Assembly (NCBI GenBank): GCA_034409565.1
Contig: DAOUMS010000002.1
Span: forward strand, 66,223 to 130,222
From: Dehalococcoidales bacterium
GTDB taxonomy: Bacteria; Chloroflexota; Dehalococcoidia; Dehalococcoidales; RBG-16-60-22
DNA: 64,000 bases
Direction: 5' to 3'
The number at the start of each line of letters is the position of its first letter. Within the stretch, counting starts at the first letter, position 1. The notes beneath the pieces were generated by a model, which was not told the DNA's origin, did no database searches, and saw only the letters and a list, made by a program, of their open reading frames with translations. Below are positions 23,292-41,663 of the stretch, one piece after another. Both the position numbers and the translations under genes were made by a program.

Positions 23292-23340
23292 TATATTACG
23301 ACTTTTGCCAACAATTGCAAAGTATTGTGCCGGGCCCGGC

Positions 23341-23379
23341 GATAAGCTAGCAAGGGTTAGATACCGTTACTAGCTTATC
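23341..23379 (-). promoter_or_regulatory. Intercistronic stem-loop between dctP and dctQ (10-bp stem gataagctag/ctagcttatc)
   Basis: Perfect 10-bp inverted repeat read from the sequence. The neighbouring palindrome gccgggcccggc lies at 23329-23340. Confidence 0.45.
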
Positions 23380-23399
23380 ACCTACCGGCTCATGTCTGC

Positions 23400-24578: not shown

Positions 24579-24724
24579 TTTTCCCTCCTCATAAATAATA
24601 ACCTAAGCTGCATGAAAAATATTACTGTTGAAAGGGATCACCCCCTTTATCAATTATTCAAGATATTGCTTGCGTGTCTTTAAGGGCAAAGAAGACACGC
24701 CTGGTAAAAAGTCCTTTTGCCTCT

Positions 24725-25525: not shown

Positions 25526-25603
25526 AGGGCTTTATCCTCCTGGTTTCCGCACCACCCCTGTTTTACTTCAATGCGGTATTGAATATTTTTTTAAGGTAGA
25601 TGG

Positions 25604-26527: not shown

Positions 26528-26537
26528 TGCGCAACAT
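26517..26537. promoter_or_regulatory. Perfect 10-1-10 palindrome atgttgcgca-t-tgcgcaacat; candidate IclR operator
   Basis: Read directly. It is centred on the upstream candidate start codon of the IclR gene. Confidence 0.4.
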
Positions 26538-26613
26538 ATGTTTCAGTTTTTGTATCGTAAAAATTTTACATAGCAAATGTTAATTTGTCAATACTTTAGG
26601 GAAACTTTTTTAG

Positions 26614-26717
26614 GGCATTTTTGCCGGGCCAGCATTATTTCTGGCATCCGGTGCCTCTAATGGTATAACAGGAATGGCCCTGGATGTTACCGGCGGTATA
26701 TTTGCCGGCTGGGCCAA
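26614..26717 (+). pseudogene. Remnant of an SDR C-terminus (no N-terminal part present)
   Basis: The plus-frame translation GIFAGPALFLASGASNGITGMALDVTGGIFAG matches the SDR C-terminal pattern (LFLAS..S..ITG..L.VDGG). It is preceded by a stop codon and runs into the antisense strand of the transketolase gene. Confidence 0.45.
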
Positions 26718-27590
26718 TCAAGGCGCAGCTTTACTCTTTCTAAGCTCGGCCAAAGTTCTCTTCAGTTCCGCGATAGCTTTATCTCTTTGCTCTCTGGTTA
26801 CAGGACTGGCATGCCATTCCATTACATCTTCCATATAGGATACGCCCTTGCCTTTAACTGTCTTGCAGACAAGCACGCAGGGCTTGCGTTCCCGCATTTT
26901 GTTTCGTCTGGTTTCAAATGCAGCCATGAGCGATGGTATATCATGTCCATCCGCGGCTAATACCTCCCACCCGAAGGCACGCCACTTATCAAGAAGGGGT
27001 TCGATATTCATAACCTCGTTGACATTGCCATCCACCTGAAGGTTATTGTAGTCGACTATCGCCGTTAGATTATTGACACGATGATGGCTGGTTGCCATAG
27101 CGGCTTCCCATGTCAGGCCCTCTTGCAGTTCGCCATCTGACAAGAGAGCGTAGACCTGGAAATCTCTGCCGGTCTGCCTGGCCCCCAGAGCCATCCCGAG
27201 ACCAATGGATAGTCCGTGGCCAAGGGAACCCGTCGTCATATCAATCCCGGGTGTCTTCCGAAAATCAGGGTGACCTTGAAGCAAGCTATTTATGTGGCGT
27301 AATGTCTTGAGCACGCCGCGGTCAAAGTAGCCTTTATGGGCAAGAGCCGCATAAATAATGGGACAGGCATGTCCTTTTGAGAGAACCAATCTGTCTCTAT
27401 CTTCCCAGGCAGGGCGCCGGGGGTCTATATTCATCACCTGCCAGTAGAGAGTGGTTACAATTTCGGCAGCCGACAATGAGCCGCCGGGGTGTCCACTACC
27501 GGCATGGTAAATCATATCTATAACGTCACAGCGCAATTCGTAAGCCTTTATTTGTAAGAAATCGATTATGCTATCTTTCCGGCCAGGCAC
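26718..27590 (-). CDS. Transketolase, N-terminal (ThDP-binding) subunit
   Basis: GSGHPGGSLS, LSKGHA and the GDGELQEG-like SDGELQEG motif. Confidence 0.9.
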   Translation of the reverse strand: MPGRKDSIIDFLQIKAYELRCDVIDMIYHAGSGHPGGSLSAAEIVTTLYWQVMNIDPRRPAWEDRDRLVLSKGHACPIIYAALAHKGYFDRGVLKTLRHINSLLQGHPDFRKTPGIDMTTGSLGHGLSIGLGMALGARQTGRDFQVYALLSDGELQEGLTWEAAMATSHHRVNNLTAIVDYNNLQVDGNVNEVMNIEPLLDKWRAFGWEVLAADGHDIPSLMAAFETRRNKMRERKPCVLVCKTVKGKGVSYMEDVMEWHASPVTREQRDKAIAELKRTLAELRKSKAAP

Positions 27591-27624
27591 TGATTTTTCC
27601 CCTTTCTCTAGGTTGCATAATATG

Positions 27625-28590
27625 CTAATGCTTCTTTATGCTAACAACATCGCGAACTGCTCGTATGATGTCATCCCGTCCGAGTCCATATTTATCTCTT
27701 AATTCGTAATTTTTACCTGATTCAGTATATACGTCTTTAATGCCCAAACCGCGAAATCGCACCTTTATTTCGGCTTCAACCAGACACTGGCAGACCGCTG
27801 ATGCCAGACCGCCAATAATATTATGGTCTTCTATCGTGACCACGGCTCCAGTTTTGTTCGCTGATTTAACCAGCAATTCTTTATCCAGAGGCTTAAGAGT
27901 CGGCATATCCAGTACTTCAACTCCGATTCCATCCAGAGCCAGACTTTCGGCAGCCTCCAATACCCTGCTCAGTGCAATCCCGTAGGAGATAATGGTAACG
28001 TCTTCTCCTTCTTTCACCGTGTAGCCATGGCCTATATTAAACTCAGTGTTTTCATCATATATAACAGGTGTAGCTTCATATTCAATCCTGATGTAAACCG
28101 GTCCTTCGTGTTTTACAGCTGCCTGTGCTATTTTTCGGGCTAAAACTGCGTCTGATGGCACCATTACGACCAGATTGGGGAAGCTCCGTACAATAGCTAT
28201 ATCTTCCAGAGATTGATGAGTTACTCCGTCCTTGCCATCGCTCAAACCGGCGTAACCACCGATTACTTTGACGTTGAGATTCGGATAACAGATGAAGGTC
28301 CTGAATTGTTCACACGCCCGCATCGAGGCAAATACGGCAAAAGTCATGGCAAATGGAATCATACCGGTCGATGCCAAACCAGCGGCCACGCCAAGTAAAT
28401 TCTGTTCAGCGATGCCCATATCATAAAATCTCTTGGGGAATACATCGCGAAATCGCCGCGAACGGGTAGTCCGGGAAACATCAGCATCAAGTACCACGAG
28501 TCCGGCATTTTGTTTGGCGATTTCAATAAGTTCGTCAACAAATGCTTCGCGTGGGTCAATCATTTTTGCATCTCGCATCATGCTATCCAT
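27625..28590 (-). CDS. Transketolase, C-terminal (pyrimidine-binding) subunit
   Basis: FYDMGIAEQN and the DGVTHQ-type motif DGKDGVTHQSLEDIA. Confidence 0.9.
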   Translation of the reverse strand: MDSMMRDAKMIDPREAFVDELIEIAKQNAGLVVLDADVSRTTRSRRFRDVFPKRFYDMGIAEQNLLGVAAGLASTGMIPFAMTFAVFASMRACEQFRTFICYPNLNVKVIGGYAGLSDGKDGVTHQSLEDIAIVRSFPNLVVMVPSDAVLARKIAQAAVKHEGPVYIRIEYEATPVIYDENTEFNIGHGYTVKEGEDVTIISYGIALSRVLEAAESLALDGIGVEVLDMPTLKPLDKELLVKSANKTGAVVTIEDHNIIGGLASAVCQCLVEAEIKVRFRGLGIKDVYTESGKNYELRDKYGLGRDDIIRAVRDVVSIKKH

Positions 28591-28806
28591 TCCTTAATAT
28601 TTTCAGGTCTGTAAATTTTTATATGACGGCTAATCTTTCCGTTTTATTTAAATATTCCGGGGTTATATACTTCAAGCGGATATTCCATTCTACCATAAAC
28701 CGAAAAGTGATAGAATAGGGGTATGTGCAAGTTGTTCAAGCCTTATTTTGATTTTTGGGTCCTTTGTATTAAATGGGCTTATTGGCGTTGGGAGGGCAGA
28801 GAACCT

Positions 28807-29496
28807 ATGATTACATCTGTCCTATCTTTTCTCGTCTCTATTGGTGGGGTAATTGGGGCATTTCTTACAAAGGAATGGTGGATATTCCTTGTACCATTAG
28901 GTATGTTTATACTATTTATCGCACCTTATAAACTTTGGAAAGCACAGCATGATGAATTAACAAAAATGAAAGAGAAACGGCTTGTAGTTTCTCTTTCAGA
29001 TAATTATAGGCCAAGAGATGGTTCAGATTGGCTTCGCTTGCGTGTGGATAATCCGAGTGGGGTAAGTATTAAGGGGTGCTATGGGAAGCTATCTTATTAC
29101 ACAATGCTTGTTAGCGTGGAGGGCATTTCTAAGAAAGCAACAGATATATCTACTGGAGCATCGTTAAATGATGGTTTACCACCTGCAAGGCATCCCTTCC
29201 CATGGGCATCAACAACTACTCCACCAATATTGAAGCCAATAGGGAGTAAAGACCACGAATTTCTTTATATAGCTGTTGTACCGAAACAGGGTACTAATTT
29301 CTTTACGCCAACAGAATCAGGGCTAGGATACCCCAAAACTAATATTTTTGCTGAATATGAAGCGCAAATAGACATTGGGTCTGAAAGTGAGGAATTTTCT
29401 CCAACAAGGGTAGTCTTTAGATTTGCGATGACACAGCATAGTATAGAAGCTAAGGAATTAGAGATTGTTAATGAACAAAGTGAAATCAAGACTTAA
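28807..29496 (+). CDS. Hypothetical membrane-anchored protein (2 TM plus soluble domain)
   Basis: ATG 28807 is preceded by GGGAGGG, and the track start at 28723 is less likely. The region is AT-rich and I recognise no family. Confidence 0.5.
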   Translation: MITSVLSFLVSIGGVIGAFLTKEWWIFLVPLGMFILFIAPYKLWKAQHDELTKMKEKRLVVSLSDNYRPRDGSDWLRLRVDNPSGVSIKGCYGKLSYYTMLVSVEGISKKATDISTGASLNDGLPPARHPFPWASTTTPPILKPIGSKDHEFLYIAVVPKQGTNFFTPTESGLGYPKTNIFAEYEAQIDIGSESEEFSPTRVVFRFAMTQHSIEAKELEIVNEQSEIKT

Positions 29497-29659
29497 AGAA
29501 CTAGCATTAACATTATTCGTGCTTCTCCTGTTGAGTGTGGTACTCCTTGCGGTTGTCGGGTTCACAACTTTGTTTGGGGAATACTGGAAGTGGGCGCTCG
29601 GTGGGCTCGTAACCCTAACATTTGCGTGTATAGCTTTATATCTGGTATATAGAAGGTAA
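29471..29659 (+). CDS. Small hypothetical 2-TM protein (62 aa)
   Basis: The ORF overlaps the previous gene's end. It has two hydrophobic helices and only a weak AAGGA upstream. Confidence 0.35.
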   Translation: MNKVKSRLKELALTLFVLLLLSVVLLAVVGFTTLFGEYWKWALGGLVTLTFACIALYLVYRR

Positions 29660-29661
29660 AG

Positions 29662-30567
29662 TCAATGTGTCAGAGAATCATAGGTAAGGTTATCGGAACT
29701 AATGAGTTTCAGGAGGGTATCACGAAATAGGTATGGGTTATCACGATTATTAAATCGCCACTCTAACTCATCTAAATAAGCATCAAGATGTTTAACAGAG
29801 ACTTTATGATAAGAACCGATAACAGACCGCTTAAAGAGACTCCAGACATTCTCAACGGTGTTGGTGTGGACATCGCCGTTGACCCATTCCTCTTCACTGT
29901 GGTTGACCGTCTCATGCCTAGTATCATGGTCGGCAATACCCTTGTAAGCAGGCCAGTCGTCAGTATAGATAGCTTCCGTATCCGGTGCGGTGTTATTCTT
30001 GATAAACTCGTGGAGTGTCTTTCTATCTCTACTACTCACCACTTTGAGACGCAGAGAACCGCCACGCTCAACAGCGCCAACAACAGCCACCTTATTGCCC
30101 TTATAGCCATGCCCTACGTCTCTGCGCTTGCCACCTATCCATGTCTCATCAACCTCTACAATGCCATTAAGAGGCTCTGGATTGATTTCTGTCATGGCAT
30201 TTCTTATTCTGTGGCAAAGATACCAAGCCGTCTTATAGGATACGCCGAGAGTGCGTTTCATCTGATTAGCGGATACACCTTTCTTGGCCTCAACCATCAA
30301 ATAGACCGCCATGAACCACTTGGCAAGTGGCAGGTGAGAGTCGTGGAATATAGTGCCAGCAGTAACGGAGAATTGATAACCGCATGAACCACAATCGTAT
30401 TGGTCACGAGTATATGAGTTGCGAATGTCCTTGCTCTCACAGCGAGGGCAGGAGATACCATCAGGCCAGCGTAGGTCAGCCAAAGCCTGACGGCATGAGT
30501 CGTCGCTATGGTATCTTTCTACCAGCTTCATCAAGTTCATTTCCTGCTTACCATTCTTCTTGTTCAT
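29662..30567 (-). CDS. IS1595-family (ISXO2-like) transposase; element ends not resolved
   Basis: N-terminal zinc-finger CPRC..CGSCGY followed by a DDE region (VEVDETWIGGK, YTDDWPAYKGI). The 301-aa length looks intact. I could not identify terminal inverted repeats. Confidence 0.85.
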   Translation of the reverse strand: MNKKNGKQEMNLMKLVERYHSDDSCRQALADLRWPDGISCPRCESKDIRNSYTRDQYDCGSCGYQFSVTAGTIFHDSHLPLAKWFMAVYLMVEAKKGVSANQMKRTLGVSYKTAWYLCHRIRNAMTEINPEPLNGIVEVDETWIGGKRRDVGHGYKGNKVAVVGAVERGGSLRLKVVSSRDRKTLHEFIKNNTAPDTEAIYTDDWPAYKGIADHDTRHETVNHSEEEWVNGDVHTNTVENVWSLFKRSVIGSYHKVSVKHLDAYLDELEWRFNNRDNPYLFRDTLLKLISSDNLTYDSLTH

Positions 30568-30579
30568 TGGAGGCCTCCT

Positions 30580-30699
30580 ATGCCTAAAAAGAAAAAGACT
30601 GCCAGAGATATGACAACTGAGGAACTAGCGAAGAAAGTTTTCCCCAAAAAAGTAAGGGATAAACTAAAGAAAGTAGCCCATGAAAAAGACTCAAAATAG
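30580..30699 (+). CDS. Possible 39-aa Lys-rich peptide divergent from the transposase
   Basis: ATG 30580 lies 6 nt after GGAGG of the palindrome GGAGGCCTCC. The product is MPKKKKTARDMTTEELAKKVFPKKVRDKLKKVAHEKDSK. Confidence 0.25.
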   Translation: MPKKKKTARDMTTEELAKKVFPKKVRDKLKKVAHEKDSK

Positions 30700-30814
30700 C
30701 TATAATTCAGCTTCATATTGGGATTATAGCACAGAATTTAATCCGTGTCAAGTATATAATCCCGAAATATTCATTATAGTGTGTAGCTCGAAAAATGCAA
30801 AGTGAATTACCACG

Positions 30815-30943
30815 TAAGCAGTTTGTTAAGCAAAGGCCGAGTATACTGAGTAGCTGAAAGGAGAGCCATAAAAAATGAGGAAAATTAGCCTCAAAAATGG
30901 TGAGCCGCGGAGGACTCGAACCTCCAACCGGCTGATTAAGAGT
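30815..30943 (-). repeat. Direct repeat copy 1 (att-like): tRNA-Lys 3-prime half plus 83 bp of 3-prime flank
   Basis: Identical to 41504-41633 apart from one 1-nt indel (caaag-gccgag versus caaagtgccgag). Confidence 0.9.
30898..30943 (-). pseudogene. Truncated tRNA-Lys(CTT): anticodon loop to CCA only
   Basis: The reverse complement reads ACTCTTAATCAGCCGGTTGGAGGTTCGAGTCCTCCGCGGCTCACCA. The 5-prime half is absent. Confidence 0.88.
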
Positions 30944-31059
30944 TGATTTTCCCAAACAAGTACGACAGATTATTGCGCCATGCAGGATAAAAGGTAGAAC
31001 TAAAACCTTCTCTAAGACCTTTGCGTTAGTATATTAAAGTTCGAGTCCCCTTAGCTGGT

Positions 31060-33060
31060 TCATTTATCAATATCAGCTATAACAGGCAGGTGGTCGGAGG
31101 CATTGCTTGTAGGTACAAGAACACTGCTCACTCCCAAGTCAGAGGTTATCCAGATATAATCAATGCGCCTTTCAGGATTATCTGATGTAGAGGTATATGC
31201 TGGAGTAACTCCTGCTGCAACTGCGGCATCTGAAAATCCACCCTGCCGCAGCATTTCCATCTCAGGGTCATCCGGATCTGCATTCAAATCTCCCAGTAGT
31301 ACTGTATGGGCAGTGTTGTCCCAGAAGTCAAGGATAGTTTCAGCCTGAAGTTGACGAATATCGGTATCTTCTTCAATGTGGTGGAGGTGGGTAGCGATAA
31401 TGTGCAGTTTCGTTCCGTTGCCCACATTTACTGTTGCCGCGATGAAGCTTCGTAATAAAGGCTGATCGCGTGGTGGCAGTTCGTGATAAGTATATTCCGT
31501 AACAGGATATCGGCTCATGATAGCATTACCCCAGAGTGGTCCTGTCGCTGGCCCAAAAACGTAGGGCATGTGCAGTCGCTGGGAAAGCCACGTCAGCATA
31601 TCTAGTCGGCCATTAATGACCCAACCCCTTGACACTTCCTGCAGGGCTACGATGTCGGCTTCGCTTTTCTCAATCACTTGAGCTATGGCCTCCATACCAA
31701 GGTAGCCATCTGTGTTAAAACCGTTGTGTAGGTTGTAAGTCATAATTCGTACTGGTAATACTTCACCTGTGCCTGCCGCAGGTGTCCGCCAGGTAATTAA
31801 AGCTAACAGGGGAAATATCAACAGAATTAGCGTTGCCAATGAAAATGCCCACGCCCTATGACTTACAGGCATCTTTCGTTGTGGAGCGATTGATGTTCCT
31901 AAGGCACAGAACACTATGATACCGGCTGCAACAGGTTCCAAGATGGTATTGGAGTAAGGAAGGCTGATATCATAGACAGCGTAATATCCAAAAACAAGCA
32001 CGAGGAAAAGAATCATACCGATGCCATTAGGTACCAAGATGCTGGTCTTTGCCGCTTTTTCCGAATCCCCGGCAACACCGATTATGATAACAGCTATGAG
32101 TATTGATAATAGTATCTGTCCCACCAATAAGAGTGTCGCTGTTAACACAGCTGCTTGATAGTAAGGCAAAATCAAGACGATAATTAAACCTATGCCAGAG
32201 ACTGAAGCCCACGGCCATATGGAACGCCTTATTTGGCTAAAGAAAAATACGACAGCCCCCAGACCCGCCAAGTGTGCGAAAACTGTCCATCCATAAGCCG
32301 CGGGCAGTATCCAGCCGGTTGAGGTTGCCAGTTTGGCGATGTTCTGGAAGATTTCTAACTCTAAGAACAGGAAAGGGCCGATGGCCAGCCAGGTAAAAGA
32401 CCTCAACTTGGAGATATTGCCGGCAGTACTGGCCGATGCCGCTGCGTTGGCCCTACCTTCAAGAATACCACCGAGCCCTATCCATTGAACTAATACCAGA
32501 AGTAATGTTATGAATATGGGTAGCCAACCCGTCTGCCAGATTATATCATAAGTACCGAAAACACCGTACAGCGTGGTGTCTAATGTTAACCCCAGCAGTA
32601 AACCAATAGCGAAATGAGGTACGTCATTTACTCTATGGCGTCGTGCCGTCTCAAGATAAGTTGATAGGAAAATGGCGAACAACGATGTTCCCAGCATCGC
32701 CAAAATCAAATTAAATAATGGCTCACCCCACCAAATTTGCAGTAAAAACCGAAATAGCCCAAGGCCACCTGCCGTAACCACAATAATAAGATAACCGCTC
32801 ATCAGCCGGAGGAGAGGGATCGCTATGAAAGCAGTGAGAAAGACAACCAGCCCCACCGCTCCAAGTTCTTCTGCACCCCAGCCCATCCGATTCCCGAGTA
32901 CCCAGTTCAGACCGGGCAACAACACCCTGAATGTCTGCATACCGAAAAGGACTGTCAGAGCTACCACGGCCACATTGGTGAATGCGAAATGTGCTGATAG
33001 CCATCTTGTTACCGAGAGTATTAAGCCTTTTCCAGTCGTACAATCAGACCCGTGGCGCAT
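31060..33060 (-). CDS. Polytopic membrane protein with C-terminal endonuclease/exonuclease/phosphatase (EEP) domain
   Basis: About 420 aa with at least 10 hydrophobic helices, followed by the EEP motifs MTYNLHNG, DIVALQEV, LLGDLNADP, RIDYIW and SDHLPVIADI. Confidence 0.8.
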   Translation of the reverse strand: MRHGSDCTTGKGLILSVTRWLSAHFAFTNVAVVALTVLFGMQTFRVLLPGLNWVLGNRMGWGAEELGAVGLVVFLTAFIAIPLLRLMSGYLIIVVTAGGLGLFRFLLQIWWGEPLFNLILAMLGTSLFAIFLSTYLETARRHRVNDVPHFAIGLLLGLTLDTTLYGVFGTYDIIWQTGWLPIFITLLLVLVQWIGLGGILEGRANAAASASTAGNISKLRSFTWLAIGPFLFLELEIFQNIAKLATSTGWILPAAYGWTVFAHLAGLGAVVFFFSQIRRSIWPWASVSGIGLIIVLILPYYQAAVLTATLLLVGQILLSILIAVIIIGVAGDSEKAAKTSILVPNGIGMILFLVLVFGYYAVYDISLPYSNTILEPVAAGIIVFCALGTSIAPQRKMPVSHRAWAFSLATLILLIFPLLALITWRTPAAGTGEVLPVRIMTYNLHNGFNTDGYLGMEAIAQVIEKSEADIVALQEVSRGWVINGRLDMLTWLSQRLHMPYVFGPATGPLWGNAIMSRYPVTEYTYHELPPRDQPLLRSFIAATVNVGNGTKLHIIATHLHHIEEDTDIRQLQAETILDFWDNTAHTVLLGDLNADPDDPEMEMLRQGGFSDAAVAAGVTPAYTSTSDNPERRIDYIWITSDLGVSSVLVPTSNASDHLPVIADIDK

Positions 33061-33121
33061 TTCTCTTCACCACACCTATTCTCGTTGTTCATTTAAGACG
33101 TATTGCGTAAAAAGTAAGTGA

Positions 33122-33149
33122 ATTATAATCATTTTAGTGCAAATGTCAA
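33122..33149 (-). promoter_or_regulatory. Near-consensus sigma70-type promoter TTGACA-N16-TATAAT for the EEP gene
   Basis: On the minus strand the -35 is at 33149-33144 and the -10 at 33127-33122, about 60 nt upstream of start codon 33060. Confidence 0.45.
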
Positions 33150-33170
33150 TACTGGGGCTTCGCAAACAAT

Positions 33171-34097
33171 TCAAATGACCAGGTTTAACGTGGCCGGGAG
33201 CACTTGAAAATGGACAGGTGCCTCTCCCAGAAGCTCACCGTCAGCTTGTAGAGATGTCTGTTGTACGGCTTGAATATATACGTCTCTTACTTTCTTCAAC
33301 GTGACTTTGGGATGCGTCAAATGTGTACCTCTGTAGATTCGGGGTAAAGACCGAAAGAGGTCAGGTTTGCTCAACTCGTCTATTATCAGGACATCAAGAA
33401 AACCGTCTGTAGGATCAGCGTGGGGAGCAACCAGCATACTGCCTCCCCCATACTTCCCGTTGCTTACCAGAATCGTACAGACCTTCCTGTCCTCTGTTTT
33501 GCCGTCAACTCTTAGAGATACCTGCCTGCTATGATACAAAAGGAAGGTGGTGAGTAATCCAGCAAGGTAAGACGGCTTACCGCCCAAGGCTTTGAATCTT
33601 CGTGTGGTAGCCTTAACTACTTCAGCATCAAATCCTAAGCCGGCAAAGTTGACAAAGAGCCGCTTTATCTTTTGTTCGTTACTTGCATACTCCGCCACAC
33701 CAACATCTACTACCAGCTTTCGCGGATTCATAAGACGCTGGCAAGCTTCCTTAAAATGACAAGGTAAGCCAAGGCTGCGAATGTAATCCGAACCTGTTCC
33801 GGTGCTTATGATGCCCAGCATTACATCTTTAATGCCGCCAGACTTATATAGACCGTTCACGATTTCATTTATTGTCCCATCACCGCCTACCGACACCACC
33901 AACTCGTACCCCTTCTCAACCGCTGATCTAGCCAGCTCAGTGGCATGTCCAGGTGATTCTGTTAACTCGTGTTCAAATGACAGGCCAATTTTATTTAGCC
34001 AGTTGCTAATCTGCGGCCATTTCTTTGCCGCCCTACCCGCACCAGCCGCTGGGTTAACGATCACTCTTGCATGTGACAAACGTTTTAATCTCTCCAT
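33171..34097 (-). CDS. Diacylglycerol-kinase-family lipid kinase (YegS/DgkB-like)
   Basis: ARVIVNPAAGAG, the canonical GGDGTINEIVNGL, and GTGSDYIRSLGLP. Confidence 0.85.
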   Translation of the reverse strand: MERLKRLSHARVIVNPAAGAGRAAKKWPQISNWLNKIGLSFEHELTESPGHATELARSAVEKGYELVVSVGGDGTINEIVNGLYKSGGIKDVMLGIISTGTGSDYIRSLGLPCHFKEACQRLMNPRKLVVDVGVAEYASNEQKIKRLFVNFAGLGFDAEVVKATTRRFKALGGKPSYLAGLLTTFLLYHSRQVSLRVDGKTEDRKVCTILVSNGKYGGGSMLVAPHADPTDGFLDVLIIDELSKPDLFRSLPRIYRGTHLTHPKVTLKKVRDVYIQAVQQTSLQADGELLGEAPVHFQVLPATLNLVI

Positions 34098-34531
34098 GGC
34101 AGGCTCTCCGTGTCTATCTGGCGACCAATCTCCCTTGCTCTAGCTTTATGTCGGTTAATTAGGATTACATGCCAGTCACTGTAACAATAGATACCCTGAA
34201 AAATTAAACCGCCGAGCAATCCATAGGTTATAGTAGACGTTAAAATGTATATCCCGGTTATTGCGCTGAGACCTATCAGACATAAAGAGCACAGCCAATG
34301 GTGCAGATGAAGCCCCCACTTTCTAAAGGGAATAACGAGTGACCTTACTTTACCTGGTTCTCCTGCTGATTTACCTGCCGCATACTTAGATGTCAGAAAA
34401 CCTGTAAGCCAGCATAAGAAAAAGATATAGCCAAGCATAATAGTAGCAACTATCGTTAAAAGGATGGCGACCAGCTTTTTTATATGCAACCAGTGTCGTA
34501 TATGGCCAACGATATTGCGTGTTTTATTCAT
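34085..34531 (-). CDS. Hypothetical membrane protein (about 148 aa, 3-4 TM)
   Basis: I set the start to ATG 34531 (MNKTRN), 7 nt after the glpD-like stop. Its 3-prime end overlaps the lipid-kinase start by 13 nt. Confidence 0.5.
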   Translation of the reverse strand: MNKTRNIVGHIRHWLHIKKLVAILLTIVATIMLGYIFFLCWLTGFLTSKYAAGKSAGEPGKVRSLVIPFRKWGLHLHHWLCSLCLIGLSAITGIYILTSTITYGLLGGLIFQGIYCYSDWHVILINRHKARAREIGRQIDTESLPWRD

Positions 34532-34538
34532 AATGAAC

Positions 34539-36203
34539 TCACCGAATACATATAACTTGCTCCGGTAATGTGTGGGAGCACTCGAGATACTCCTGATAAT
34601 GCCGATACTGCTCTGCAAACTCCTCCTCACTCATACCCAGCTCGTAGCGTATCATCCGTGCTCCGTACCGGAGGCGCTCCAATCGTGTTTCATTGTTCCA
34701 GTGCAGAAAGCCAGCACGCCGCTCAACTAAGTCTTCCAATGTACAAGCCATTTCATTGCGGCAAACATATCGGATTTCAGCGCGGATCAAATCGGCTCTT
34801 GAGTCTATGTGCTCACTGATGAAGGTTTTCTTTGCTTCAGCACAAATGGTATTGGCGTCAACACCGTAGCGCTGATAAAGGGGTTGGAAATATCTGGCTA
34901 GCTGTGGGCATCGCTGTACCCAGTAGGCAAGCCCCTCGACAACCTCCTCGTTGGCGCCCCCAATGGGGAGCTTGTGTGTCAGGCACGGTGACCACACGCC
35001 CGCGTGATTCATAGTTTTGGTAACGCAGTCGAGAATCCTGATTGCTATAAGCCTCGCCGTGGTTAGCTTACCACCAACCACAGTAATCAGGCCCGATGGC
35101 GCCACTTCAATAACATCTTCACGGCTCACCAATGACGGATCGGGGTTTTGGCCGTTTGTCGAAAGAAGCGGCCTGAAGCCACTGTAGGCAAATCGAACTT
35201 TATCGCCATCCAGTTGTGCGTTTGGCATAAATTGCCGCAGAGACTCCAGCAAATACCCCACATCCTGTTGGCCTGGCGCTGGGGTGCTTGGCTCTGCGTC
35301 TTCCCAATCGTCCGTGGTGCCGTAGAGAAAACAGCCTTCCCGCTTGATTAGGAAAAGCGGTCGTCTATCAACCGGAGACAGGAAAATTATGCTAACCGCA
35401 AGCGGTACATCCCCTTCGGCGAGAACCAGGTGTGTTCCCTTGGACAGTCTCACCAGATTGGTCACGCCGGGTCGGTCTAAATTCCTGACCCTGTCCGCCC
35501 AGACTCCGGTAGCATTGACTACTGCCCTGGCTCGGGCTTCATACGAGGCGCCACTTACCCGGTCGTGGTAAGTCACCCCAACAATTTTGTTGTTCTCTTT
35601 CAAGAGCGCAGTGACCGGTGCGTGATTGATGGCCAATCCGCCGTTCCGCACACCATCCTTCACAGTTTCCAAGGTCCATCGGTTGTCGTTCACAATTGCA
35701 TCGTAATAGAGGCATCCGCCGCTCAGGTCCTCTACGGGAAGACTTGGCGCCATTCCCAGTGTTTCTTGGCGACTGAGAAATCGGTGAAAGCGGTGATTTT
35801 TGAAGCCGGACATCACTTCGTAGAGCAGCATGCCCAAGCGTACTTTAGCGCGAGATTCGCCTTGGCCGCGATACAGAGGTAATAGAAAAGGCCATGGCTG
35901 AACAAGGCGCCTGTTCAACCGAATGTGAAGGTTGCGCTCGTGGCAGGACTCCCAGGCCAGCCGAAAGCCCCGGTTCTTTAAGTACCTGAGTCCTCCGTGG
36001 AAGAGCTTGGAACTGCGGCCACTCGTGCCCGCAGCAAAATCATTTGCTTCAATAAGTGCCACGCGCATCCCTCGGAGAGCCGCATCACGAAAGATTGACG
36101 CCCCAATAATTCCGCCGCCAATAATCAGGAGATCAAGCTGCTCACCAGACAGCCTCTGGAACAGTTGTGGACGAGACCATTTATTGAATAGTTCCAGTCC
36201 CAT
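34539..36203 (-). CDS. glpD: FAD-dependent glycerol-3-phosphate dehydrogenase/oxidase-like
   Basis: DLLIIGGGIIGASI FAD fingerprint, AAGTSGRSSKLFHGGLRYL, and a long C-terminal domain. The start overlaps the upstream stop (TAATG). Confidence 0.8.
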   Translation of the reverse strand: MGLELFNKWSRPQLFQRLSGEQLDLLIIGGGIIGASIFRDAALRGMRVALIEANDFAAGTSGRSSKLFHGGLRYLKNRGFRLAWESCHERNLHIRLNRRLVQPWPFLLPLYRGQGESRAKVRLGMLLYEVMSGFKNHRFHRFLSRQETLGMAPSLPVEDLSGGCLYYDAIVNDNRWTLETVKDGVRNGGLAINHAPVTALLKENNKIVGVTYHDRVSGASYEARARAVVNATGVWADRVRNLDRPGVTNLVRLSKGTHLVLAEGDVPLAVSIIFLSPVDRRPLFLIKREGCFLYGTTDDWEDAEPSTPAPGQQDVGYLLESLRQFMPNAQLDGDKVRFAYSGFRPLLSTNGQNPDPSLVSREDVIEVAPSGLITVVGGKLTTARLIAIRILDCVTKTMNHAGVWSPCLTHKLPIGGANEEVVEGLAYWVQRCPQLARYFQPLYQRYGVDANTICAEAKKTFISEHIDSRADLIRAEIRYVCRNEMACTLEDLVERRAGFLHWNNETRLERLRYGARMIRYELGMSEEEFAEQYRHYQEYLECSHTLPEQVICIR

Positions 36204-37993
36204 TAGCCCTTTACTCCGGCAAAAAATGCGCTGGTGTTTACAACAACATTGCTAATACCTTCCCGCTTCCTTGGTGAGAATATCATCACGTGGTTGATTT
36301 CATCGCGACCGGACTCGACCTGGGCACCGGTTCCATCAAATCCGCAGTAGTCCATTGTCACCCTGTATAAAGCGGGAGTGTAGTAACTTGCCTTGTAGCC
36401 GACGTATCGACCGGACAGCGCATAGAACTCTGGTGCAAAACAGTCTGAGACGAGGACACCGTCACCACGAATGTTTTGGTAAACCCATTTCAAGTGACCT
36501 ACTACCTCGGGTTTAGGCAACCAACCGGACAAGCCCACAAATAGAACCAGATCGTACGGGGCAGCCTCTGCAAACTTCGCGCGCATCCCATCGTCTGTAA
36601 TGTCGCCCCGCAGGAACTGAAAACGGATACCGAGATGCTCGGCTCGTGCAATCAGTTCGTTTTCCAGGTAGCTGTGCGGGTCCAGGTCAGCGGCGACCAG
36701 TCGAACGCACCTCATAGCCTTTGGCATACGATTAGCAATAGCGTTCAGTGGCTGAAACAAATCATAGGCAAACCCACTCGGGGCGGTAAAAATACTGACA
36801 TCCCGGCCTTCTTGCAGCCGTTCCTCCAGCTCAGCCTCAATTCTTCCAGTCAGGATGTGCAATCGGTCGTACACCGCCCGGTGTAGTGGATATTCGAGGA
36901 ATATGCGATCCAGAAAGTTGCAGCGCTGCTCGCCTTGGTCGTAAATCGCCCGCATGACCCCGGCAGAGTACCCCTCCTTCAGGAGAAGGCGTCCAAGCCC
37001 TGAGAACATAAAGGTCGGCTCCCGCCATGCACCTCGGAACCAGTTTGGCATCAGATAGCGTACCAAGTAGCGATGATTAAGCAGCTTGCGCCATACGACG
37101 CTCCGGGTCAACTCCGCGGTGGGCGTTCCCAGTGGGACCCTCTCTGCCATCTCCTGACGTTGGTGGGCCAATATGTGAGGCTTGAGTAGTTCAAGTACTG
37201 CCTGCAAGGTTTCTCCCGGTGTCATGTTATCCACAGCCAAGCAGTGCGCTACCTCCGGCGAACGATACAGCCTAAAAGCGTCAAGAGTCTTCAGGTACTT
37301 GTGCCTCGCCTGAGCCAAGTCGTCCTCATTTTCATGTCGGTCAATCTTTTGACTCCGTGAAGTGATGCGGGTCATGGCAAGGGCTGGTGATAGGTCGAGA
37401 AAGATTACAACGTCCGGTAGCCATCCGGCATGAAGACCAAAGCGTTTTGCTAAGCGTAAGAGCATTCGCGCCTTTCTGATATGGGGCAGCTTGGCTTGAA
37501 TCCTTTTGGTAATAGACTCCCCGTTAAGGAGATATTCAAAGACTGCCTTTAGTTCAGTAGGATCGGGTTCTTGCACGCCAACATTAGCTTTTTCACTGGC
37601 AGGGTGTGTATAGTTTGCTGCTCGTCCCGCAGCAGACAGGAGGATATTGCCGTCGCTGATGACCACATCAGCACCGTATCGTCGACTCAATCTGTAAGCG
37701 GCGTCGTCCTGAAAGACCATCTGGGCCAGCTTGAAGAACGGGTAAAGACGGCGGTTATCTACAACACGCTTGGCCTGACACTTGAACCACTTAGACAGAT
37801 GGCAGGTGGTCGGCAGGCCATTCGGATGAAACCCGGGTGCCAGATGGTCCTCATCAGCTTCAACAATCCGGAAGACTTCACTAGCCGAACCTGCCCGCAA
37901 GTTCAGCTCAGCGGCAAGGATATTGGGCAAGGCTGCGGTGATTGTGCTCTTGCCACTCCCATCGATTCCTAACACGCAAATATGTAAGGTCAT
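36203..37993 (-). CDS. Fusion protein: N-terminal P-loop (thymidylate/NMP-kinase-like) domain plus C-terminal class-I SAM-methyltransferase-like domain
   Basis: Walker A VLGIDGSGKST lies at the N-terminus. The C-terminus shows VAADLD, GDITDD, YDLVLFVGLSGWL and GDGVLV. I set the start to ATG 37993 (MTLHICV), which overlaps the upstream stop as ATGA. Confidence 0.55.
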   Translation of the reverse strand: MTLHICVLGIDGSGKSTITAALPNILAAELNLRAGSASEVFRIVEADEDHLAPGFHPNGLPTTCHLSKWFKCQAKRVVDNRRLYPFFKLAQMVFQDDAAYRLSRRYGADVVISDGNILLSAAGRAANYTHPASEKANVGVQEPDPTELKAVFEYLLNGESITKRIQAKLPHIRKARMLLRLAKRFGLHAGWLPDVVIFLDLSPALAMTRITSRSQKIDRHENEDDLAQARHKYLKTLDAFRLYRSPEVAHCLAVDNMTPGETLQAVLELLKPHILAHQRQEMAERVPLGTPTAELTRSVVWRKLLNHRYLVRYLMPNWFRGAWREPTFMFSGLGRLLLKEGYSAGVMRAIYDQGEQRCNFLDRIFLEYPLHRAVYDRLHILTGRIEAELEERLQEGRDVSIFTAPSGFAYDLFQPLNAIANRMPKAMRCVRLVAADLDPHSYLENELIARAEHLGIRFQFLRGDITDDGMRAKFAEAAPYDLVLFVGLSGWLPKPEVVGHLKWVYQNIRGDGVLVSDCFAPEFYALSGRYVGYKASYYTPALYRVTMDYCGFDGTGAQVESGRDEINHVMIFSPRKREGISNVVVNTSAFFAGVKG

Positions 37994-39105
37994 GGCTTGC
38001 CCCCTTTCCCCTGTGGCCACCGGTAGTCCTGGCCGGGCACAAAGGCCAGTGTCCCCGCGACTTGAATTAGCACTCTGCTGTGGAAAACCAGTGGGTCCTC
38101 ATCAAGGAAGAATTCCACACCGTCCCGATCCGCCAAACGAACCTCCAGGCAATTAGAATCCATAATCCGCATTTGTAATGCGTTTTTCGCAAGGCGGTGA
38201 CGAGAAAACAGCAGAAAGAGTGGCGCCCATCTTTGCGGATATGAAATAAAGTTCAGTGACAGTGCCGCATCTTCCACGCGAACTCCCGGTTGAAAGGGCA
38301 GCGGCTTTAATGGAAAGTTCATGACCACACCGGCGAGCAGAGGCATAGATTGGACATGTTCTCCCATACGCATTTCCACGACCTCAACAGCATTCGGCCA
38401 CAAAGTACACCGCGCGAGCCGGATGAGGAGTGAGAAGCCATACTCTATATTGTTGAGCCTCTCAATGCCAATAAGCCGTGCCGTCAGCCTGCGCAGTACC
38501 GGCAGCCGATGATGCCAGCGCTCTAGGTCTCCAGGAGAGCGACCGAACTGCCCGAACCCGACCATAGTTGCGGCATAATGGATATCTGTATTATCCACCT
38601 CACAGCACATAACACAGCAGCGGGCAGTACGATCCTCATGCAAATTAGCAATGATTCCCTTCAGTGCAACCTCCGGAACGTATGGCACACCGAATTGCTT
38701 AGCTACAGGATTTCCTGAACCCATCCGTAGCGCCGCAATACGAACGCGCTCTCGCCCGGGCAAATGGTCTGGCTCACTTCCAACACAGATACCCTCAATG
38801 ACTGCCCGCAGTGTCCCGCTACCACCGCCAGCAATGACTAATGCCGGCGCATCAGATGTTGCCAGAAATGCCTTCGTCTGTTCCCTCGCCTGTGAGTGGT
38901 CGTCCACGACCTCAACTCTGATTTCCACCTTATGGCCAAGGGCTTCATCCAGCACCGAACGGAGACGGTCTACAGTTGCATTCCCGTGACCTGTAGACGA
39001 TGAACGATTGACGACCAATAGAACACGCTCTACTACTTTTATTGAATCTGCCATCATTTCACTATTGTTGAGGTCTGTAAAGCTCTGTTGCGTATACATA
39101 CTCAT
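37990..39105 (-). CDS. Divergent DAGK-catalytic-fold (ATP-NAD kinase-like) protein
   Basis: RVLLVVNRSSSTGHG, ALVIAGGGSGTLRAVIEGI (GGGSGT in place of GGDGT) and RMGSGNPVAKQFGVP (in place of GTGNDFAR). Confidence 0.55.
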   Translation of the reverse strand: MSMYTQQSFTDLNNSEMMADSIKVVERVLLVVNRSSSTGHGNATVDRLRSVLDEALGHKVEIRVEVVDDHSQAREQTKAFLATSDAPALVIAGGGSGTLRAVIEGICVGSEPDHLPGRERVRIAALRMGSGNPVAKQFGVPYVPEVALKGIIANLHEDRTARCCVMCCEVDNTDIHYAATMVGFGQFGRSPGDLERWHHRLPVLRRLTARLIGIERLNNIEYGFSLLIRLARCTLWPNAVEVVEMRMGEHVQSMPLLAGVVMNFPLKPLPFQPGVRVEDAALSLNFISYPQRWAPLFLLFSRHRLAKNALQMRIMDSNCLEVRLADRDGVEFFLDEDPLVFHSRVLIQVAGTLAFVPGQDYRWPQGKGGKP

Positions 39106-39156
39106 AATATAGGCCAGGAGATGCCGATTGAGTATCGGTATGTGTCTGATTTTTAC

Positions 39157-39196
39157 GTAGGACTTTGACTCAGCTTTTTGACAGCATTTGTCCTAC
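39157..39196. promoter_or_regulatory. Inverted repeat GTAGGAC-N26-GTCCTAC enclosing two TTTGAC direct repeats; candidate response-regulator operator
   Basis: Read directly from the 236-bp spacer between the LuxR-type regulator stop and the kinase operon start. Confidence 0.3.
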
Positions 39197-39341
39197 AAAG
39201 AAAGTGACGGATTCAAGTGGTAGGCTTGTTAGACTCAATCAGAGAACGGCAGGAGGAAATGCGGAATAGCGACTACTCAGGTTCAATACAAGAGGTCAAG
39301 ATAAATAGTTGGTAGCCGATGTGGTTTTATTCTATAGCTTT

Positions 39342-39974
39342 TTAGTGAATCAGTTGATTTTTTATAGCATAATAGGTCAGTTCGGCATTATTCTTCATTT
39401 TCATCTTTTCCAAAATACGTGACCTATAGGTGCTGATAGTTTTTTCGCTAAGAGAAAGCTCGTGCGCAATCTCCATTACTGTTTTCCCGGAGGCAATCAT
39501 GCGCATCACGTGATATTCACGGTCGGAGAGTGTCTCATGTGGTGCTTGCTCACGACCAACCTCCAGCTCAAAGGCCAGTTTTTCGGCAAGAGAAGAACTG
39601 ATATATTTACCACCCCTCGATACCTTTTGTATAGCTACTACCAATTCATCCGGTGCGCTTTCCTTGGTCAAATATCCTGAGGCACCAGCTCTTAAGGCCC
39701 GCAAGGCATACTGCTCCTCCGGGTGAATACTCAACATCAAAACGGGAAGATCCGGTTTTTCAATTCTGAGTTGTTTTAAAACATCCATCCCATCTCTGCC
39801 GGGCATGGTGATGTCAAGGACAACCACATCGTAATCATTCTCCTTTATCATGTTGAGCAATTCCTGCCCGTTGCTCGCTTCGCCAGCTACAGCCATATCC
39901 GAGGTTTCGGTGACTATCTGCTTCAGCCCTTGGCGAACAATTGCGTGGTCATCAGCAATTAGTATTTTAAGCAT
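39342..39974 (-). CDS. NarL/LuxR-family response regulator
   Basis: REC domain (ILIADDH, DVVVLDITMPGRDG) plus a LuxR HTH (LSDREYHVMRMIASGKTVMEIAHELSLSEKTISTYR). Confidence 0.92.
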   Translation of the reverse strand: MLKILIADDHAIVRQGLKQIVTETSDMAVAGEASNGQELLNMIKENDYDVVVLDITMPGRDGMDVLKQLRIEKPDLPVLMLSIHPEEQYALRALRAGASGYLTKESAPDELVVAIQKVSRGGKYISSSLAEKLAFELEVGREQAPHETLSDREYHVMRMIASGKTVMEIAHELSLSEKTISTYRSRILEKMKMKNNAELTYYAIKNQLIH

Positions 39975-41178
39975 CCTCCTCCTCCTTATTCGCTAGCGGA
40001 ATAATTACCACTGCCGTGGTCCCTTTACTTGGGATACCGCTGGTTTTAAACTCGCCTTGCCAAGAGCGGACGCGTTCTCTTATTCCGAGTAGGCCAAATG
40101 ATCTTGGATTAGAGATTTGTTCATTGGTGATTCCTCTGCCGTTATCCTTGAGTGTTAACACTATCTTGTCAGCTTCTTCTATCAGGCTTGCCTTGACCTT
40201 GGTGGCATCGGCATGGCGCGCAACATTCGTCAGCAGCTCCTGAAAAATTCGGAAAAGTACTGTAGAACGGTCGCTATCTAAGACGATATCGTCAGGTTTT
40301 ATGCTTATCTCGATGCGTATTCCGGTCAATTTTTGAAATTCACCGACTTGCCATTCCATAGCAGCTACTAGGCCAAAATCGTCTAATAGGCTTGGCCTCA
40401 ATTCTGCTGAAATGCTCTTTACTTTTTGGATGGTCATGTCAACGAGTTTAGACATTGACCTTGTCTTCTCCAACGATGATTCCTGGTCTGGAGGAAATTC
40501 TTTTGCCAGCCGGGACAGGTCAATTTTCAGAGCTGTTAGCAACTGCCCCAGCTCGTCGTGAATATCACGGGCCAGGTTAGTTCTTTCTTCTTCCCTTACC
40601 GATTGTAGATGGTCTGAAAGGCTGCGCAACTGTTGACGAGAAGCCCTTAATTGCTCCTCGGTATGTTTACGTTCGGTAATGTCTCTCACTAATACAAGGT
40701 CGGCAGGTCTTCCTTCATATGAGATTATGCTTGCATTAATCTCAACATTAATGGCACTACCATCTTTTCGTTTGAGTACTGTCTCGTAGATTGGCTCAAC
40801 ATTTTCACCTGACAAGCGCTGATTGTAACGGTCAATCACTATATGACGTTCTGCAGGATGAAGGTAATCAGTAAACGGAGTGCCAGTACTTTCTTGAACA
40901 GTGTAGCCACCCATTTCCGCCAGACGCGGGTTGAGGTATTTCATTATGCCGTCTTGAATAATGACGATGCCATCATTAGCCCGTTCTACCAGATTGCGGT
41001 ATTTTTCTTCACTCTCATGTAACGCTCTCTCAGCCTTTCTGTGCTCTATGAGTTCTAGCTTCAAATGTTTTTTTACCTGTCTGTGCTCGACCTTTATTTT
41101 TAAAAGGTTGGCGATACGGAGACGTAGCTTTTCTAGCTCCTGGGTAAGTTGCCCTTTTGTTCTATTAATGCGACTCAT
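39967..41178 (-). CDS. Cytoplasmic PAS sensor histidine kinase (HisKA_3 type)
   Basis: N-terminal coiled coil, PAS domain, H-box DIHDELGQLLTAL and HATPase_c domain. I see no TM segment. It overlaps the regulator start by 8 nt. Confidence 0.9.
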   Translation of the reverse strand: MSRINRTKGQLTQELEKLRLRIANLLKIKVEHRQVKKHLKLELIEHRKAERALHESEEKYRNLVERANDGIVIIQDGIMKYLNPRLAEMGGYTVQESTGTPFTDYLHPAERHIVIDRYNQRLSGENVEPIYETVLKRKDGSAINVEINASIISYEGRPADLVLVRDITERKHTEEQLRASRQQLRSLSDHLQSVREEERTNLARDIHDELGQLLTALKIDLSRLAKEFPPDQESSLEKTRSMSKLVDMTIQKVKSISAELRPSLLDDFGLVAAMEWQVGEFQKLTGIRIEISIKPDDIVLDSDRSTVLFRIFQELLTNVARHADATKVKASLIEEADKIVLTLKDNGRGITNEQISNPRSFGLLGIRERVRSWQGEFKTSGIPSKGTTAVVIIPLANKEEEDA

Positions 41179-41503
41179 TGGTAATCGCCTCGGGAAAGGT
41201 GCTTCATACTTGATTATTATAAATTATAGCATGCTCCTCTAGCCTTTGGTCAGAATGATACGTTATATACTGGAAGACACTTAAGTAGTGCAACCGCAGT
41301 CAATAAGATAATCGTGTTAGCTTCCTCTGATTTTACAAAATTGGGAAATTGTTAATGAGCTATTACCCGTTGAGAACGATTACCCAGTTCATTTACTAGA
41401 CCGTGCAGGTCTCGAACTGTAACTACTAAAATTAAAGATACATATTTTGCGGATGTTGAATTTACTTGATTATAGAGTTATCCTGTTTAGCAAATAAAAA
41501 AGT

Positions 41504-41633
41504 TAAGCAGTTTGTTAAGCAAAGTGCCGAGTATACTGAGTAGCTGAAAGGAGAGCCATAAAAAATGAGGAAAATTAGCCTCAAAAATGGTGAGCCGCGG
41601 AGGACTCGAACCTCCAACCGGCTGATTAAGAGT
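41504..41633 (-). repeat. Direct repeat copy 2 (att-like), part of the intact tRNA-Lys plus its 3-prime flank
   Basis: See copy 1 at 30815-30943. Confidence 0.9.
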
Positions 41634-41663
41634 CAGCTGCTCTGCCAGTTGAGCTAGCGGCCC
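41588..41663 (-). tRNA. tRNA-Lys (anticodon CTT), CCA encoded
   Basis: The reverse complement folds as GGGCCGC-TA-GCTC-AACTGGCA-GAGC-A-GCTGA-CTCTTAA-TCAGC-CGGTT-GGAGG-TTCGAGT-CCTCC-GCGGCTC-A-CCA. Confidence 0.93.

Follow-up and report, generated by a model that had tools for sequence, protein, structure and literature searches.

Cis-mobilizable elements (CIMEs) keep both attachment sites, attL and attR, after the genes for integration have been lost (PMC5704250, summarising Pavlovic 2004 and Bellanger 2011). At the ssrA gene of Dehalococcoides, 15 integrase-less islands have been described and proposed to be CIMEs (PMC3146451). The Islander logic recognises a regenerated target gene together with a displaced fragment of that gene, and the anticodon loop is the commonest crossover sublocation, with 2083 of 3919 islands (PMC4383910; Williams 2002 cited there). 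The subject of this report is a segment in the genome of an uncultured Dehalococcoidales bacterium (assembly GCA_034409565.1, contig DAOUMS010000002.1), analysed within a stretch of 64 kb that is called the window throughout and whose positions and strands are used for all coordinates. This segment, 30944-41503, is bracketed by two copies of a 130-nucleotide (nt) unit containing the 3' part of a tRNA-Lys(CTT) gene, carries eight genes and encodes no integrase. It is a further case of an integrase-less tRNA island or CIME, having the anatomy of these classes and lacking an internal integrase. At a probability of roughly 0.6, we further read it as a non-autonomous, CIME-like integrative island placed at tRNA-Lys(CTT) by a tyrosine integrase acting in trans.

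The islands at ssrA of Dehalococcoides mccartyi belong to the same class, with direct repeats of the 3' end of a small RNA gene, a hypervariable hotspot and 15 members without an integration module (PMC3146451). However, they have a 20-base-pair (bp) repeat, a target in ssrA and reductive dehalogenase cargo, whereas the present island sits at tRNA-Lys between repeats of 130 nt, has cargo concerned with signalling and lipid metabolism, and belongs to a host of an uncultured sediment lineage. The CIMEs of the ICESt1/ICESt3 family in Streptococcus thermophilus, described along with tandem accretion, are alike in that their attL and attR derive from the 3' end of the gene targeted and that they have no genes for integration or transfer; a related element that supplies the integrase is thought to be needed for them to move (PMC5704250). 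They differ from the present locus, which lies at the anticodon loop of tRNA-Lys(CTT) in the Chloroflexota, shows no helper, tandem partner or remnant of an integrative and conjugative element (ICE), and has a 130-nt repeat with a non-tRNA cassette; mobilisation of the present island is, moreover, a proposal. Islander-type tRNA islands share with it the regenerated tRNA gene, the co-oriented displaced 3' fragment and the anticodon-loop crossover (PMC4383910), but Islander requires an internal tyrosine integrase, of which there is none here, and the identity between the copies here runs 84 nt past the tRNA.

The repeat pair and its cargo

ARAGORN finds five tRNA genes in the window, including an intact tRNA-Lys(CTT) gene with an encoded CCA at 41588-41663 on the minus strand (65.3 bits with the Rfam tRNA model). 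As this gene is 76 nt long, position within the gene equals standard tRNA numbering. Its 5' half and leader are orthologous to those of four related loci (L081, L085, L082 and L014; the loci used for comparison, 86 in all, bear handles of this form). Two direct repeats, 30815-30943 and 41504-41633, agree at 129 of 130 positions, the sole difference being one 1-nt indel; there are no substitutions in 130 nt, and the longest exact stretch is 108 nt (30836-30943 = 41526-41633). The repeated unit, S, comprises nt 31-76 of tRNA-Lys, from the last base of the 5' strand of the anticodon stem through CCA, and 84 nt of 3' flank that opens, in both copies, with a terminator-like hairpin, TGAGGCTAATTTTCCTCA, followed by T6; the whole anticodon loop is contained in each copy. 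In the right, tRNA-proximal and attL-like copy (41504-41633, minus strand), the hairpin lies at 41566-41583 and the 84-nt block ends in TTTGCTTAACAAACTGCTTA. The left, distal and attR-like copy (30815-30943, minus strand) consists of displaced tRNA-Lys nt 31-76 at 30898-30943, on the minus strand and thus co-oriented with the intact gene, and of the same block with a 1-nt deletion; upstream of it there is no tRNA 5' half. An earlier, sequence-only reading of the stretch had described the near-identical pair, the right copy as part of an intact tRNA-Lys(CTT) gene and the left as the 3' part of that tRNA with the same flank, and in all three respects it agrees with the MAFFT alignment, the repeat finder and ARAGORN.

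The locus accordingly has two of the marks by which Islander defines a tRNA island, namely an intact gene and a co-oriented displaced fragment bracketing the island, and a crossover at a recognised sublocation, as identity begins at nt 31, beside the 7-nt anticodon loop. It likewise retains, by sequence, the candidate att sites (129/130) of a CIME. The unit occurs only twice in the 64 kb, even when 3 mismatches or the alternative tRNA allele described below are allowed, and shuffles give 0.00 expected chance occurrences of a 35-nt piece of it. A third, older tRNA-Lys fragment, as in a tandem array, was also considered, but the window contains none with the alternative allele and 3 mismatches permitted.

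Eight open reading frames (ORFs), all on the minus strand, fill 31060-41178 between the repeats. In the order of transcription, they begin with a sensor histidine kinase with PAS and HisKA_3 domains in Pfam (39967-41178), whose homologues at 80-93% on the amino acid (aa) level head the same cluster on other contigs, and a NarL/LuxR-type response regulator (39342-39974; PF00072, PF00196). There follow a 371-aa protein with a diacylglycerol-kinase catalytic domain (37990-39105; PF00781, 1.1e-11), a 605-aa protein with only a short dTMP kinase-like stretch (36203-38020; PF02223, 6e-10, residues 185-246), and an FAD-dependent enzyme resembling glycerol-3-phosphate dehydrogenase/oxidase (34539-36203; PF01266, PF16901; the NCBIfam glycerol-3-phosphate families score below their cut-offs). 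The remaining genes are a 181-aa ORF that matches no family and is kept as an ORF in L041 (34085-34630), a lipid kinase of the YegS/BmrU family (33171-34097; PF00781, PF19279, and TIGR00147 above cut-off), and a 666-aa protein with an endonuclease/exonuclease/phosphatase domain at residues 440-657 (31060-33060; PF03372, 6.5e-28), of which the ~430 N-terminal residues match no family. Neither the 605-aa nor the 666-aa protein has a relative in the PDB by sequence. By these family matches, the cargo combines a two-component system with lipid kinases, a phosphoesterase and an enzyme like glycerol-3-phosphate dehydrogenase.

That no integrase or recombinase lies between the repeats had been noted from the letters alone and holds under Pfam, NCBIfam and tblastn: none of the eight ORFs is a recombinase, and the integrases of seven relatives find no remnant in 30561-31100, in 41151-41600 or in the whole window. 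The PF00589 tyrosine integrase that Islander expects inside an island is thus absent, and the coding content is that of a CIME, with no functions for integration or transfer. Among the ORFs at 11.7-55 kb, the only recombinase is the transposase of an IS1595-family insertion sequence (IS) at 29662-30567, outside the repeats. No remnants of an ICE, an integrative and mobilizable element (IME) or a prophage were seen inside the island, although in one other context (L043, below) the cargo adjoins an integrase. A prophage was rejected, as the eight ORFs include no phage structural or regulatory genes and IMG/VR contains neither the tRNA-tail pattern nor the block. An anti-phage defence island was likewise set aside, PADLOC returning only weak partial-domain matches and no system.

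The tRNA-Lys(CTT) site and the cargo module in related bacteria

An exact search for the 46-nt tRNA tail in one genome per species returned 33 loci, all of them in the Chloroflexota and mostly in the Dehalococcoidia; because the pattern included CCA, the scan passed over alleles in which CCA is not encoded. In two other Dehalococcoidia genomes, L007 (on contig DAOULR010000004.1, 109 kb) and L031 represent displaced tRNA-Lys fragments without a 5' half that start at nt 31, like the window's left copy, and each is preceded by a non-tRNA arm ending in A. The L031 fragment is adjoined by a CI/LexA-like repressor and comes from the same genome (CAZNSC01) as L016, in which an intact tRNA-Lys gene is followed at once by a tyrosine integrase. 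A PF00589 integrase thus lies directly 3' of tRNA-Lys(CTT) in L016, ~100-110 nt 3' of it in L024, L022 and L005, and 3.5 kb away in L034 (on contig CAYVOV010000003.1, 204 kb), so that the place at which the sequence-only reading would have expected an int gene is exactly where the first four of these relatives have one. Its proposal of an attL/attR geometry is also supported, with a crossover in the anticodon loop of tRNA-Lys and the same start nucleotide in the L007 and L031 fragments. On these comparisons, tRNA-Lys(CTT) is a real integration site, with a crossover point that matches the edge of the window repeat.

Syntenic contigs were found through the neighbouring DUF4286 protein, and L014 was obtained from the genome scan. 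The right flank (radical SAM, methyltransferase, ArsP permease, DUF4286, tRNA-Lys) is conserved over 3-10 kb in four relatives and ends at the tRNA. Nucleotide identity to the window is 92% in L081, 86% in L085 and 83-85% in L082/L084, where synteny extends to window position 51347, and in all of these homology stops at 41590, the 3' end of the tRNA; in L014, at 80% identity, it stops at 41397. The island genes are absent from the orthologous site in L014, L081, L082 and L085, and each syntenic relative has different DNA downstream of tRNA-Lys; the genes found there in L014 (cimA-like, alcohol dehydrogenase and UroD-like) have no counterparts in the window. A gene order common to all relatives would have spoken against an island, but the four syntenic relatives without the cargo dispose of that option. 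By the evidence of these alignments, the tRNA-Lys locus is a hypervariable hotspot. As a separate observation, L082 18691-19143 matches window 32-481 at 68% nt identity, the C-terminal part of a TreS/maltokinase-like gene being aligned with the window's first ORF. The L082 gene lies ~8 kb downstream of tRNA-Lys; the window ORF is 41 kb away from its tRNA, relative to which it is oriented the other way. The match could reflect a paralogue or be the sign of a large rearrangement.

The 84-nt block is present in the window (twice), in L014, L021 and L034, and after the displaced fragment of L007. Its identity is 86-97%, against ~80% for neighbouring genes, and in four independent comparisons the homology ends at a TGCTTAAC motif. 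In L034, the block is directly followed by mobile-element-like genes and the integrase. Throughout the 86 loci its core occurs only directly 3' of tRNA-Lys or a fragment of it, and it is absent from 2.9 million viral contigs. The sequence-only reading had seen 83-84 bp of common flank beside both tRNA tails; both copies do carry this flank, but it is not simply native, given that the closest syntenic relatives, L081, L085 and L082, have neither the block nor an encoded CCA. Among the window, L081, L085, L082 and L014, the 5' half of the orthologous tRNA-Lys(CTT) gene is invariant and the 3' half comes in two alleles, which differ in compensatory T-stem changes (GGAGG/CCTCC or ACAGG/CCTGT) and in having or lacking an encoded CCA. 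Distances calculated over the flank that they share place the window with L081 and then L085, and L082 and L014 nearest each other, and both the block and the 3'-half alleles are distributed against this grouping. An invariant 5' half with discordant 3' alleles and block is what would be expected from en-bloc replacement by integrating elements, and the tRNA tail, CCA, terminator and block are together probably a cassette (a P' arm) of an element family and not the ancestral flank. Both window copies have a 34-bp deletion and a C-to-G change seen in no relative, which makes them sister sequences, either of one lineage or homogenised by gene conversion. The block varies in length from 84 to 125 nt (41504-41587 and 30815-30897 in the window, 3339-3460 in L014, 5290-5408 in L034; also in L021 and L007) and contains the TGCTTAAC repeat two or three times. 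Its strand opposite to the tRNA bears a TATACT box and an AAAGGAG motif, together with an ATG from which the reading runs back into the tRNA, and the window's 34-bp deletion falls between TTTGCTTAACAAA repeats.

The cargo is found elsewhere as a conserved eight-gene module (31050-41279, minus strand). Contigs L036-L046, reached through close homologues of the histidine kinase and the 666-aa protein, match 41279(41341)-31050 of the window collinearly, with 82-91% nt identity, homology extending to 41341 in the closest contig, L039. At one end the homology always stops at 31050, ~10 nt past the stop codon of the gene for the 666-aa protein, and at the other ~100-160 nt ahead of the kinase gene, and the module is set in at least five different upstream and at least five different downstream contexts. 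A conserved 60-70-bp tail that follows the 666-aa gene on these contigs is absent from the window, where homology stops at 31050, and their cargo flanks match the window only through paralogous short-chain dehydrogenases. Partial tRNAs occur in three of the contexts. In L044 (Ga0180438_10012389), a 3' fragment of tRNA-fMet in the same orientation comes ~140 bp after the 666-aa gene, which is the geometry of the window's left end; L038 has a 29-nt tRNA-Met-like 3' fragment ~230 bp upstream of the kinase; and in L043 (Ga0209536_100108044), with the cargo inverted, the same 29-nt fragment adjoins a PF00589 integrase beyond a copy of F, a segment that in the window separates cargo and right repeat. 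Such varied contexts and tRNA fragments repeatedly tie the cluster to tRNA-type attachment sites, and once to an integrase, and the cargo is a module travelling between tRNA-linked sites in related bacteria. As to the details of these fragments, L043 2155-3287 reads cargo, inverted F, block end, partial tRNA-Met-like 3' half and tyrosine integrase; the L038 fragment (1916-1940) lies beside a 504-aa ORF without a Pfam match; and the central T-stem pair of the tRNA-Met-like fragment is an A-C mismatch.

The edges of the repeats differ from those of the cargo, as the conserved module ends at 31050 and ~41279-41341. On the left, a window-specific spacer of 106 bp (30944-31049), the candidate P arm, lies between the displaced tRNA fragment and the cargo and has no match in the 86 loci. 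On the right, a window-specific junction spacer (41342-41396, or from 41280 when measured against L036, L037 and L041) lies between the promoter region of the cargo and F (41397-41503, 107 bp, minus strand), for which L014, and in part L021, has homologous DNA past the block on the 3' side of tRNA-Lys, and which also occurs in L043. Neither the block nor F yields an Rfam family or a conserved RNA fold. The non-coding stretch of 325 bp at 41179-41503, in which the sequence-only reading suggested that integrase remnants be sought, is as it described; however, the lack of any tblastn remnant and the homology of 41397-41503 to L014, which has no island, show that the spacer is not a decayed int gene.

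These findings bear on the proposal that the island was once autonomous, as a prophage, ICE or IME, that its own integrase was later deleted and that it is now a fixed, immobile fossil. This is the standard proposal for the origin of CIMEs (PMC5704250). The position of the integrase varies among relatives, with a distance of 3.5 kb to the tRNA in L034 and, in L043, a place at the arm side of the tRNA fragment, so a lost int gene need not have abutted the tRNA, and the missing 60-70-bp tail of the cargo indicates rearrangement at the distal end. We nevertheless consider such a history rather unlikely: the tRNA-proximal 107 bp are the conserved F of L014 and L043 and not debris, no integrase remnant is found anywhere in the window, and the copies differ by no substitution although the left one is free of tRNA constraint, which argues for a recent event or gene conversion. 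The notion of a dispersed repeat of a generic kind, or of a likeness due to chance, with the 130-nt unit having nothing to do with integration, which would be favoured by the short block-end piece and F beside the tRNA-Met-like fragment in L043, is hardly credible in view of the two copies in 64 kb, the chance expectation of 0.00, the confinement of the block core to tRNA-Lys or its fragment, its absence from the viral contigs, and the want of an Rfam family or RNA fold. The further ground on which the repeat might have been dismissed, namely that the unit sits at many other loci, is not borne out in the 64 kb or in the 86 loci.

An orphan T-loop-like fragment, GTTCGAGTCC, lies in the 106-bp spacer at 31039-31048 on the plus strand, and F ends in an orphan remnant running from T-loop to 3' end, GTTCGAGACCTGCACGG, at 41401-41417 on the minus strand. 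A scan for the T-loop motif gave seven matches against 0.8 expected, the other five being in real tRNAs or in the displaced fragment. The two orphans are located just inside the segment ends in inverted orientation, each pointing into the cargo, and the right-hand one is also found in L014, L031 and L043. Earlier integrations of the T-loop type may have left them as scars, or they may be inversion sites, since L043 has its cargo in inverted orientation with respect to F.

Proposed origin of the island

The repeat anatomy, the lack of a recombinase, the absence of the island from relatives, the mobility of the cargo and the presence of integrases at tRNA-Lys in relatives point to a history in which a circular intermediate, a helper in trans and an arm role for the block would each have a part. 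A circle of ~10.69 kb, consisting of tRNA nt 31-76, block, F, cargo and 106-bp arm, would have recombined with the chromosomal tRNA-Lys gene when a tyrosine integrase crossed the two over in the anticodon loop, with CTCTTAA as the predicted crossover sequence. The incoming DNA would have supplied the 3' part of the now-intact tRNA (the right copy), and the previous 3' part would have been displaced to the far end (the left copy), the integrase being provided in trans by the family found directly 3' of tRNA-Lys in related genomes. The predicted attB is ...GCAGCTG/ACTCTTAATC...CTGCTTA/CGTGGTAATTCAC, and the predicted attP is ...GGGAAAATCA/ACTCTTAATC...CTGCTTA/ACTTTTTTATTTGC, slashes marking the boundaries. 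The repeat would measure 130 nt and not ~46 nt because incoming and resident DNA both carried the cassette of tail, CCA, terminator and block. The presence of two cassette copies might go back to re-insertion within one lineage or to two successive related insertions, possibly with gene conversion. A capture resembling specialised transduction (lambda gal/bio; 'gene capture' by accretion) would explain how a native-looking block and F, as in L014, came to travel with the cargo. Its application here is conjectural; phage genes, a donor genome or a secondary att site were not found.

The length of the repeat is also what an integrase-free route would offer to explain. In a RecA-dependent Campbell insertion, within the 130-nt homology, of a circular or linear fragment that came from a conspecific cell and carried the tRNA tail and block, the repeats would be as long as the shared homology, and the lineage-specific 34-bp deletion and C-to-G change common to both copies would agree with this; a segmental duplication followed by deletion is the other form that such a route could take. 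But the edge at nt 31 is the same in two unrelated integrase-type junctions, which would be unexpected unless the incoming DNA had been pre-cut there by an integrase. Duplication with deletion is a poor fit, since the 42 bp beyond the left copy are unrelated to F. The adjoining IS has an intact 8-bp target duplication and so made no adjacent deletion. All told, we regard an origin without integrase as improbable.

The Logan contigs of SRR14802573 (L001, L002 and L086) are 100% identical to the window, one of them with a single mismatch. Their ends at 41638, 41523 and 30996 leave none that spans the repeat, and a repeat with two ways in and two ways out would permit a path in which an empty tRNA-Lys site and a free 10.69-kb circle, or the arrangement of another strain, were threaded together through the 130 nt. 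Such an assembly ambiguity is very improbable. The indel cuts the exact repeat to 108 nt, a length that 150-nt reads and large k-mers can bridge; the assembly kept the two copies apart as different sequences; and the junction of the 106-bp arm with tRNA nt 31 is impossible as a k-mer chimera. Even if the ambiguity were real, so would be the element, which would then be actively excising. The contig end at 30996 lies 52 nt before the repeat, which does not explain the break; strain variation at the distal junction of the island may do so.

Several observations weigh against integration in trans as proposed above. An exact empty site, with tRNA, S, 42 bp and transketolase in succession, was not found in genome or metagenome contigs or in protein-context look-ups, so that the search for an empty site in relatives, as the sequence-only reading had suggested, succeeded in part, yielding four syntenic relatives without the island but no exact empty site. 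F is also downstream of tRNA-Lys in the island-free L014, whereby the tRNA-proximal end would be native on the simplest reading, which a plain attP x attB reaction does not predict. The 106-bp arm has no similarity to the arms of L007 and L031, no helper integrase is found within the 64-kb window, and there is no near-identical donor, the closest cargo homologue having 91% nt identity. As the Logan contigs stop short of the repeat or within it, they speak neither for nor against the assembled path across it. The compositional signal is also weak: the bracketed DNA is indeed AT-richer, as had been remarked, with a GC content of 48.6% against 54.3% in each flank, but there is no compositional boundary at the repeats, the GC trough extending over ~24.5-34 kb and being unbounded by them.

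Beyond integration of this one island in trans, one might imagine the portable att cassette to define a whole family of integrase-less, trans-mobilised islands in marine-sediment Dehalococcoidia that capture chromosomal operons, here the cluster of two-component and lipid-kinase genes, switch tRNA targets (Lys, fMet, Met) by tail swap and are still excising, the circle and the empty site being hidden by assembly. This broader scheme is speculative, and we think it doubtful.

Neighbouring features and biological meaning

The left neighbour of the island is an IS1595-family IS of 2107 bp (28658-30764, minus strand; PF12762, PF12760; NF033547, 224 bits) with inverted repeats, its termini being CGGGGTTATATACTT and AAGTATATAATCCCG. 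The transposase gene within it, on the minus strand, had been overlooked by the sequence-only reading. The IS also carries two passenger ORFs on the plus strand, 28723-29496 (257 aa) and 29465-29659 (64 aa), without Pfam, NCBIfam or PADLOC match. Its 8-bp target duplication, AAATATTC, is intact at 28650-28657 and 30765-30772. The 42 bp between this duplication and the left repeat (30773-30814) formed, together with 28591-28657, the intergenic region before the IS arrived. They contain a promoter-like site at 30801-30773 on the minus strand. The IS interrupts the region upstream of the split transketolase operon and lies just downstream of this site, between it and the transketolase genes. In that operon, the gene for the pyrimidine-binding/C-terminal part precedes the one for the N-terminal part. 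A composite transposon or an IS-mediated deletion was rejected, there being a single IS, outside the repeats, with its target duplication intact; the element is a simple, separate insertion outside the island.

Further left, a region of low GC content (~45-49%) at ~21449-28590 holds a TRAP transporter (tripartite ATP-independent periplasmic; DctPQM), a short-chain dehydrogenase, an IclR regulator and the split transketolase. It shows no synteny with relatives either, and may have been acquired earlier at this hotspot. Beyond it, a cupin gene lies between two aldehyde:ferredoxin oxidoreductase paralogues (16952-18832 and 19421-21295, minus strand), and the only other direct repeat in the window, of 40 nt at 18209 and 20687, is due to this paralogy.

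As an integrase-less tRNA island, the locus is mildly unusual in its long repeat with a portable non-tRNA cassette, its native-looking F and the occurrence of its cargo at several tRNA-linked sites. It offers a concrete case in which both att-like sites are kept, no integrase is present and candidate helper integrases exist in relatives. For annotation, it counsels caution, in that the edges of the repeats, of the cargo and of the 'native flank' all differ and that island finders dependent on an integrase would miss such an island. For the biology of the group, it points to site-specific island traffic at a tRNA-Lys(CTT) hotspot in uncultured marine-sediment Dehalococcoidia, beyond the ssrA islands of Dehalococcoides, and an eight-gene module mobile between tRNA-linked sites is a candidate adaptive trait.

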